DNA of 41,599 bases, taken from contig CAZAXT010000004.1 of NCBI GenBank assembly GCA_964489295.1, forward strand, positions 1 to 41,599. Reading direction: 5' to 3'. The notes beneath the pieces were generated by a model that was not told the origin of the DNA, searched no databases, and saw nothing but the letters and a program-made list of their open reading frames with translations. Every line of letters begins with the position of its first letter. Positions within the stretch are counted from its first letter, which is position 1. The DNA is from an uncultured Candidatus Saccharibacteria bacterium. Lineage in GTDB: Bacteria; Patescibacteriota; Saccharimonadia; QS-5-54-17. Both the position numbers and the translations under genes were made by a program. Positions 28,613 to 37,746 of this stretch are shown here, one piece after another.

Positions 28613-29019
28613 TGGTGGAGCTGCGGGGAATTGCACCCCGGTCCGCAAGTTAACCCGCTACTCGTCTACACGCGTAGTCGGCTTTGGAAATCGTCTGACA
28701 ATGCAAGCATCCGGGAGCCGACCTCCGCGCTCCTGCATTGCGAGTCGAAATAGCATTCAATGCACGTTCTCGACATCACGCGCACCTACACCCAGTGATA
28801 TGACACCGGTTAACCGTTACTGGGCGTTACGGTACCGATGGTCGCGGTAGTTAAGCCGCGACAGTAACGGGAGCAAACTGCGGCGAAAATACGCTCGCTA
28901 CAGTTTCCTTCATCCGTGTCCATGCGTTTGCACGTATTGTAGTGATCCATCTGACGTGTAGATCAACCCGGCGTGCCAAGTAGCGTGTCAAAGTTCTCAC
29001 GTCGAAGCTAATCAGCCCC
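28613..29019 (-). ncRNA. ssrA: tmRNA (transfer-messenger RNA)
   Basis: The 5' end is GGGGCUGAUUAGCUUCGACG. The 3' end, GCGGACCGGGGUGCAAUUCCCCGCAGCUCCACCA, forms a T-arm-like stem plus acceptor with CCA. An internal tag frame ends ..VTVAA-UAA. Confidence 0.93.
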
Positions 29020-37008: not shown

Positions 37009-37063
37009 CGTTCCGATATACTCTCGTTAATATAACGCTGGCGTACACCCTCCTGATTAAATC

Positions 37064-37097
37064 AAAAAAGCACCCGGGAAACCGGGTGCTTAGTTTT
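37064..37097. terminator. Bidirectional Rho-independent terminator
   Basis: AAAAAAGCACCCGGgaaaCCGGGUGCUUaguuuu forms a 9-bp GC-rich stem flanked by an A run on one side and a T run on the other. It serves the '+' small ORF and the '-' rnpB. Confidence 0.7.
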
Positions 37098-37102
37098 GTA
37101 TT

Positions 37103-37711
37103 TTCCGCGCAAGAATACCTGTAAGCCGGATTCTGTCCTAGGCAGTGCTCCGCACTCAAAACTCTAAATCCGAAAATATAGATCCTAAACAATATCCAGA
37201 TCATAATTTTCCAAGTTCATAACTCGGAAATCTGGATTGGTTTCGTAATTCAGGATTCGAATTTAGAATTTCAAGGCGCGAAGCACTGCCAGTGATGGCT
37301 ATCTATCTGGGCTCGATGTTGCCACCGGGCTCGAGCGGTTCTTTACTACGACATCGGCCGGGCCAGCCATCGTGATGTCATATTCCTTGCAGCCGGCAGG
37401 GTTTACCGCCACGTACTGTCACCAGCACGGGATTCGCCTGAGGCGAAACTTTTCACCTTTCTCCCGCCGAAACGACGGGATAGTATAGTCTCTGTGGCAC
37501 TTTCCCTGGGATCACTCCCGGTTGCCGTTAGCAACTGCCGTGCCCTATGCTGTCCGGACTTTCCTCCTGCCAGTGCGCTGCGCTGGCAAGTTCAAAAGTT
37601 CTCAAAGTTACAAGTTCTAAAGCTTGAGCTGCTTTATGAACTTTATAAACATTCGACTTTCAACTCGCCGGTGCAACGCACCGACAGGTAGCCATCCGGC
37701 ACTCTTGCGCA
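37103..37711 (-). ncRNA. rnpB: RNase P RNA, bacterial type A, unusually long (~610 nt)
   Basis: Minus-strand motifs: GGAGGAAAGUCCGGACAGCAUAGGGCA (CR-I, centred on 37576..37566), GGUGAAAAG, GGUAAACCCUGCCGGCUGCAAGG, CCAGAUAGAUAGCCAUC and ACAGAAUCCGGCUUAC (37136..37121). P1 pairs UGCGCAAGAGU (37711..37701) with AUUCUUGCGCG (37116..37106). P2 pairs GAUGGCU (37696..37690) with AGCCAUC (37300..37294). Confidence 0.9.
37141..37290. repeat. AT-rich imperfect-palindromic element, copy 2 (inside rnpB, P19-like position)
   Basis: Closed by GGCAGTGCT / AGCACTGCC. The interior is collinear with the pheS-pheT spacer at 6924..7056. Confidence 0.5.
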
Positions 37712-37717
37712 TTCCTT

Positions 37718-37746
37718 ATAATACACTATGTGTTTGCTGTTTACAA
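37718..37746 (-). promoter_or_regulatory. Promoter of rnpB (TTGTAA, 17-nt spacer, TATTAT)
   Basis: The minus strand reads TTGTAAacagcaaacacatagtgTATTATaaggaaUGCGC. This places the transcription start at the first base of P1. Confidence 0.5.

Follow-up and report, generated by a model that had tools for sequence, protein, structure and literature searches.

The rnpB gene and its setting

The window, a stretch of 41,599 nucleotides from an uncultured Candidatus Saccharibacteria bacterium (GenBank assembly GCA_964489295.1, contig CAZAXT010000004.1), carries a type-A RNase P RNA gene (rnpB) of about 604–608 nt on its minus strand at 37710..37107 (Table 1). The covariance model RF00010 matches the minus strand at 37590..37301 with 187.1 bits (gathering score 100, E = 4e-59), and the local alignment reaches model positions 20–313 only, which is the core alone. 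A preliminary description of this DNA had identified the locus as an RNase P RNA of type A that owes its unusual length of about 610 nt to two large AT-rich expansions, and had proposed a covariance-model search as a check; the search aligned the core, is consistent with class A and supports that reading. We examined the type-A helices P13, P14, P15–P17 and P18 against the type-B elements P5.1, P10.1 and P15.1, and the type-A set aligned to the class-A model with high posterior probability. Known RNase P RNAs range from 250 to 550 nt, with a type-A mean of 374 nt (P Finder, PMC7191817).

Searching the whole genome (624 kb in 32 contigs, 88% complete, 51.4% GC) with RF00010 returned a single match, the rnpB gene of the window. 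Among the other structural RNAs, the 16S rRNA has a normal length of 1504 nt, and 23S rRNA is not in the assembly. The tmRNA gene, also on the minus strand of the window (28613–29019), is 407 nt long (RF00023, 129 bits) and contains about 50 nt, inserted past the start of the tag region, that the model lacks.

Table 1 Features of the rnpB locus, in the order of transcription (window coordinates)
Feature	Position	Strand	Basis
Sigma-70-type promoter TTGTAA-17-TATTAT	37718..37746	−	−10 box separated from P1 by 7 nt
P1 5′ strand GCGCAAGAGUGCC	37698..37710	−	13-nt complement of 37107–37119; 7/13 P1 pairs changed on both sides in the family
P2 5′ strand GAUGGCUA	37689..37696	−	Pairs with 37294–37301; 100% of cells paired, 2 compensatory pairs
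Extended P3, single 123-nt hairpin with GC-rich base and AT-rich interior	37566..37688	−	MFE −62.2, z = −8.5
Conserved type-A core (CR-I/P4 5′ strand, P5–P14, P15–17, P18, J18/2 AGAUAGAU)	37302..37565	−	RF00010 alignment, 187.1 bits; 90% identity to the core of the congener G001
CR-I/P4 5′ strand AGGAAAGUCCGG	37565–37554	−	RF00010 alignment
P2 3′ strand UAGCCAUC	37294..37301	−	Inverted-repeat scan and family pair count
Giant P19, imperfect hairpin of 150 nt, 59 bp (10 G–U)	37141..37290	−	MFE −73 kcal/mol, z = −13.1
CR-V/P4 3′ strand ACAGAAUCCGGCUUACA	37120..37136	−	Invariant in the family, 100% paired
P1 3′ strand GGUAUUCUUGCGC	37107..37119	−	Inverted-repeat scan and family pair count
Intrinsic terminator: 10-bp stem (7 G–C), 4-nt loop, U-run	37062..37091 (stem-loop 37091–37068)	−	15 nt past P1

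The genome also encodes the protein partner RnpA (PF00825, 85.2 bits, C22:6244-6564), and no match to a HARP-type PIN_5 protein was found in it. Given a core that is that of a normal type-A ribozyme, ordinary processing of pre-tRNA 5′ ends with RnpA is expected and is the presumed function: the rnpB product and RnpA together would form the endonuclease that removes the 5′ leader.

One element of the core departs from the usual form. The GGU motif of L15, which pairs with the 3′-CCA of tRNA, is typical of type-A RNAs and not universal among them. It is not present here; the aligned positions on the 3′ side of L15 read GUAGUA (window 37340–37350). This does not bar membership of class A, because the CCA-binding motif is missing in about two thirds of CPR RNase P RNAs (PMC8172020). 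The usual pairing of ‘no GGU’ with ‘CCA not encoded’ is broken in this genome, in which 32 of the 33 tRNA genes with readable 3′ ends encode CCA. An L15 without GGU, although nearly all of these tRNA genes encode CCA, suggests that substrate docking differs from that in E. coli.

Ends of the RNA

By reading of the sequence and an inverted-repeat scan, P1 pairs 37710–37698 with 37119–37107 over 13 bp that include G–U pairs; P4 pairs 37561–37553 with 37130–37123 over 8 bp, with U37558 bulged. The preliminary description had found both P1 and P2. The pairings hold, and in P2 100% of cells in the family are paired; the helices are longer than it had given, P1 having 13 bp rather than 11 and P2 having 8 bp rather than 7.

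In an alignment of the gene with its counterparts from six other family genomes, we counted the 29 pairs of P1, P2 and P4. Over the seven members, 96.6% of cells are paired and nine pairs have changed on both sides (seven in P1 and two in P2), compared with 26–38% paired in a control in which the partners were slid by 1–3 columns; no shuffle reached the observed values. Covariation, on which the preliminary description had let its P1 and P2 pairings depend, thus favours them. The −10 box (TATAAT) and the start of P1 are aligned in all seven family members. The promoter of the form TTGTAA-17-TATTAT and the strong terminator that had been proposed are both present (37746–37718 and 37091–37068), and the ends that had been placed near 37711 and 37103 are supported by the covariation of P1 and P2 and by both signals. 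Covariation of P1, P2 and P4, the conserved position of the promoter and the terminator together point to a mature RNA of about 604–608 nt, the exact ends of which we infer.

Two expanded arms

The 5′ expansion had been described as about 110 nt placed ahead of a simple P3 hairpin. A large AT-rich segment does lie there, but its reading changes. Folded as a single hairpin, the segment has an MFE of −62.2 kcal/mol, compared with −46.6 kcal/mol for a three-hairpin fold that keeps the small local P3 of Rfam, and such a small P3 would leave about 100 nt between P2 and P3. In bacteria this spacing is normally a single base (PMC1874661). We therefore rejected an insert ahead of a simple P3, for which the fold is 15.6 kcal/mol worse and the gap about 100 nt; on the same two grounds the folding model indicates that the 5′ segment is P3 itself, lengthened to 123 nt. 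CR-I begins at 37565 and not at 37578, as had been thought. The arm forms a nearly continuous duplex of about 50 bp. The direct repeats that had been noticed in the segment do exist, as part of a weak array with a period of about 8 nt (UUGAACUU-like) in the 3′ arm of P3, where autocorrelation gives z = 3.6 and 4.2 and TRF reports a unit AAGTTCAA in 4.4 copies.

The second arm was correctly delimited in the preliminary description, as a 150-nt hairpin at 37141..37290 in a ‘P19-like’ position. The P19 site lies between the 3′ strands of P2 and P4, which in RNAs lacking P19 are joined by a linker of 4 nt (PMC9945441); the hairpin, closed by GGCAGUGCU/AGCACUGCC, occupies precisely this canonical site. 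It is joined by the linkers ACU (37293–37291) and UAGG (37140–37137), so that the flanks read AGCCAUC-ACU and UAGG-ACAGAAUCC. A weak periodicity of about 7 nt runs through its arms. Known P19 helices differ in length, continue the stack of P2 and are coaxially related to P3 (PMC12974513), and P19 is counted among the mobile peripheral elements of RNase P RNA (PMC11779636).

Both arms are AT-richer than the core, as had been claimed: GC content is 35% in inner P3 and 31% in inner P19, compared with 57% in the core. They fold far better than shuffled sequences (z = −8.5 for P3 and −13.1 for P19), and the sense strand folds better than the antisense strand (−73 versus −49.2 for P19; −62.2 versus −49.4 for P3). 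In P19, the sense fold contains ten G–U pairs and the antisense fold none. This asymmetry between strands argues for helices that are maintained at the RNA level in the sense orientation of rnpB, and against fold-back assembly artefacts. No group I or group II intron, ORF or other Rfam family was found within either arm. Between P3 and P19 there is a weak, collinear resemblance (z = 2.4, reached by 9 of 500 shuffles), which could be explained by their common layout of a GC-rich base and an AT-rich interior. A further observation concerns a 10-nt stretch in the 5′ arm of P3, AAGUUCAUAA (37643–37634), which is perfectly complementary to UUAUGAACUU at the tip of P19 (37222–37213), a match that is near chance expectation.

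We also examined whether the arms belong to a repeat family. BLAST found no copies in this genome or in seven other genomes of the family, where matches did not exceed chance, and 9-mer counts were at background. A repeat-family origin was rejected, as BLAST of both arms against the own genome and the family, together with the 9-mer counts, gave only two short partial matches. Both are matches of the 5′ arm of P19 to AT-rich spacers of the same genome (31 nt at 90% and 42 nt at 79% identity). Two spacers of this genome (G000), C28:3757-3905 (L034:1398-1545) and C15:13082-13112 (L033), contain words like those of the P19 arm (AAAUUC, UUCGAA and UCUAA). The C28 spacer forms an AT-rich hairpin of about 130 nt (z = −5.7) just upstream of a gene start.

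Variation among relatives

A cmscan of 150 Saccharimonadia genomes gave ‘full-length’ matches mostly of 330–420 nt, with a few of 460–630 nt; cmscan misplaces the 5′ end of rnpB when P3 is long. For a survey of the class, we searched near conserved motifs for the complementary strands of P2 and P1. This yielded 97 high-confidence genes, after exclusion of loci (L040 and L116 among them) whose P2 was under 7/7 or whose P1 was short, at which P3 and P19 were measured wrongly. Across the 97 genes, the P3 region has a median length of 19 nt (IQR 15–22) and the 123 nt of the window gene rank third; for the P19 region the median is 17 nt (IQR 4–24), and the region of the window gene, 157 nt with its linkers, is the longest. 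Other members of the class have expansions in P3, P12 (up to about 270 nt), P18 (169 nt), P13/14 and P19 (about 75–100 nt). P19 regions of about 100 nt or more co-occur only with a long P3 in this sample, a pattern that comes from two or three independent lineages.

Lengths of P3 within the family are 12, 22, 31, 107, 123, 299 and 302 nt. P19 is missing in five of the six other members and is a short hairpin in the sixth (G004, with a P19 region of 33 nt); the linker at the P19 site of relatives is 4–7 nt long. The closest comparison is with the congener G001, the core of which is 90% identical to that of the window gene. Its P3 is a GC-rich hairpin of 107 nt, and a 7-nt linker stands in place of P19. 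Similarity between the two P3 arms is at z = 0.4, and their homology was rejected on this basis; RNAalifold on the pair gave no common structure, and the sequences do not align. These comparisons suggest a gain, or a loss, of P19 within the genus and a replacement or scrambling of the P3 arm, with the core barely changed, so both arms appear to turn over quickly. The rnpB of G001 (L029:1496-1947, minus strand) is about 444 nt long, compared with a cmscan match of 362 nt; its true P1 and P2 follow a conserved TATAAT box and lie about 80 nt farther upstream. Scanning metagenomes with a genus-specific 23-mer revealed no closer relative, and a gapped pattern requiring a P19 region of 140–170 nt found none there; a scan of genome collections returned only the known congener (MAG Candidatus Saccharibacteria bacterium QS_5_54_17).

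Two further genera of the family, represented by G004 and G006, have still longer genes, of about 770 nt (~L038:497-1273, minus strand) and 740 nt (~L031:1497-2243, minus strand); cmscan reports 491 and 462 nt for them because a wrong 5′ end is forced. They have a branched P3 domain of about 300 nt that is conserved between them and a P12 arm of about 110 nt, and in both genomes P3 and P12 begin with the identical stem CCCCGCACCUGAAA. In one Saccharimonadia genus of another family (L044, L048 and L152–L156), hairpins of about 100 nt with a common basal stem occur in P3, P12 and P19. The P19 and P12 copies in L048 are identical at 98 of 100 positions, and the P19 interior is inverted between species (88/97 to the reverse complement versus 71/94 in direct orientation). 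In that genus, the hairpin behaves like a copyable and invertible module within the ribozyme gene, judging from these alignments.

Origin and fate of the arms

We consider it probable that the arms are fast-evolving expansion segments that persist in the mature RNA and are under selection only for staying closed helices. The extra ~240 nt would then be two helix expansion segments, P3 (123 nt) and P19 (150 nt), on an otherwise ordinary type-A core. Going by solved structures in the literature, P3, P2 and P19 would be stacked coaxially into a single unit at the outer edge of the catalytic domain; for the RNA described here, the stacking of P19 on P2 is expected by extension from solved type-B structures (PMC12974513). 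The arms would sit at the two ends of this stack and project off the active site, where they could grow without disturbing catalysis, and such a placement may be why these sites tolerate about 240 extra nt. The arms would be transcribed and retained. Hairpin-forming sequence that grows and turns over rapidly in place may have given rise to them, and the duplication of short motifs visible in P3 may be a trace of this process. Selection would act mainly to keep self-contained helices that avoid misfolding the ribozyme; no sign of selection for a sequence-specific function was seen. Each arm is known from one sequence.

The main rival, which we regard as rather unlikely, likens the arms to the intervening sequences (IVSs) of bacterial 23S rRNA, which RNase III excises, leaving the rRNA fragmented. 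A transcript of about 600 nt would lose P3, P19 or both to RNase III, and P1, P2 and P4 would hold the pieces together. Long near-perfect duplexes are good substrates of RNase III, and the nearly continuous duplexes of P19 (59 bp) and P3 (about 50 bp) are of this kind; the genome encodes RNase III (C7:4895-5287, 142 bits). The likeness to IVSs extends further, to long AT-rich hairpins at the tips of helices in an essential structural RNA, from which excision would spare the core pairings, and to fast sequence turnover with variation between close relatives. Excision has been shown for IVSs; we know of no description of such excision for RNase P RNA. Removal of P19 would also leave a 3′ piece of about 35 nt held by only the 8 bp of P4 and the 13 bp of P1. 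That the RNase P RNA works as two or three non-covalently held fragments, naturally split by analogy with IVS-fragmented rRNA, we judge unlikely, and we are aware of no bacterial RNase P RNA reported to be fragmented in nature. If instead one or both arms had been inserted as a mobile or copyable palindromic hairpin, MITE-like or copied from helix to helix, rather than grown in place, relatives would offer parallels: the ~100-nt hairpin found in both P12 and P19 of another Saccharimonadia genus (98/100) and inverted between its species, and the identical basal stem of P3 and P12 in G004 and G006. The two spacer matches to the P19 5′ arm (31 nt at 90%, 42 nt at 79%), one of them in a spacer with a hairpin of about 130 nt, and the collinear similarity of P3 and P19 (z = 2.4, 9 of 500 shuffles) point the same way. 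Yet the own genome and seven other family genomes hold no second full or half copy, the ACU and UAGG flanks of P19 show no target-site duplication, the likeness of P3 to P19 is within reach of the common GC-base and AT-interior layout, and the spacer matches consist of short, heptamer-like, low-complexity words. We therefore regard an inserted module as decidedly improbable.

A gained function of the arms, as a platform for proteins or through an RNA–RNA contact, such as one in which the complementary 10-mers of P3 and P19 link two molecules, is very improbable. The perfect complementarity of AAGUUCAUAA and UUAUGAACUU and the restriction of P19 regions of about 100 nt or more to RNAs with a long P3 would fit it; but one such 10-mer is near chance (about 0.2–0.5 expected in 616 AT-rich bases), the co-occurrence stems from two or three independent lineages, and arm sequences are not shared even by congeners. 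We give next to no credence to a pseudogene or an assembly artefact, whether by fold-back chimeras or by insertions that inactivated rnpB. A second rnpB copy might lie outside a MAG that is 88% complete, but this gene is the only RNase P RNA found in the genome, its core is 90% identical to that of the congener with every conserved region intact, and promoter, terminator, P1, P2 and P4 are likewise intact. Fold-back artefacts would be perfect palindromes, and these hairpins are imperfect, with strand-specific G–U pairs. Expansion segments retained in the mature RNA remain the reading that we prefer.

Relation to known RNase P RNAs

Heterocystous cyanobacteria have rnpB genes with STRR arrays of tandem heptamers in P12, and these repeats also occur genome-wide. 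The likeness lies in repeat-built additions to the end of a peripheral helix, in an RNase P RNA that is active, and in their variability between closely related organisms; the window gene differs in its weak periodicity of 7–8 nt, its sites (P3 and P19) and its lack of a genome-wide family.

For CPR bacteria, ‘large extensions of helices’ in RNase P RNAs have been reported (Lui, Nielsen and Arkin 2021, PMC8172020). Those RNAs resemble the one described here in that they derive from type A, belong to ultra-small bacteria, often align only partially to RF00010, in many cases lack the L15 motif and needed manual refolding. They differ in that the paper shows an extended P15 and missing helices for other CPR classes, whereas the RNA of the window is from Saccharimonadia, keeps the full set of helices and has its extensions in P3 (123 nt) and P19 (150 nt). 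P19 of type-B RNAs and of some type-A RNAs (PVC group, for example Methylacidiphilum infernorum; PMC9945441, PMC12974513) occupies the same site as a simple hairpin of variable length that is sporadically lost or gained; at 150 nt, P19 here is the longest among 97 class members, in which the median for the whole linker region is 17 nt. The gene is thus an extreme case of a helix extension already known for CPR bacteria, in which the longest P19 of the class sample and the contrast within the genus are noteworthy.

Implications

With RF00010, such genes are either aligned in their core alone or given a wrong 5′ end, and lengths of CPR rnpB genes are therefore under-reported; the true lengths in G001, G004 and G006 are about 444, 770 and 740 nt. 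What is known of RNase P function is unchanged. For the evolution of RNA, two congeners with cores that are 90% identical differ in that one has a 150-nt P19, and their P3 arms of about 110–120 nt have no detectable sequence similarity. The sites that tolerate growth would be the ends of the P3–P2–P19 stack, and the congener pair may serve as a natural before-and-after case of a catalytic RNA gaining or remodelling expansion segments.
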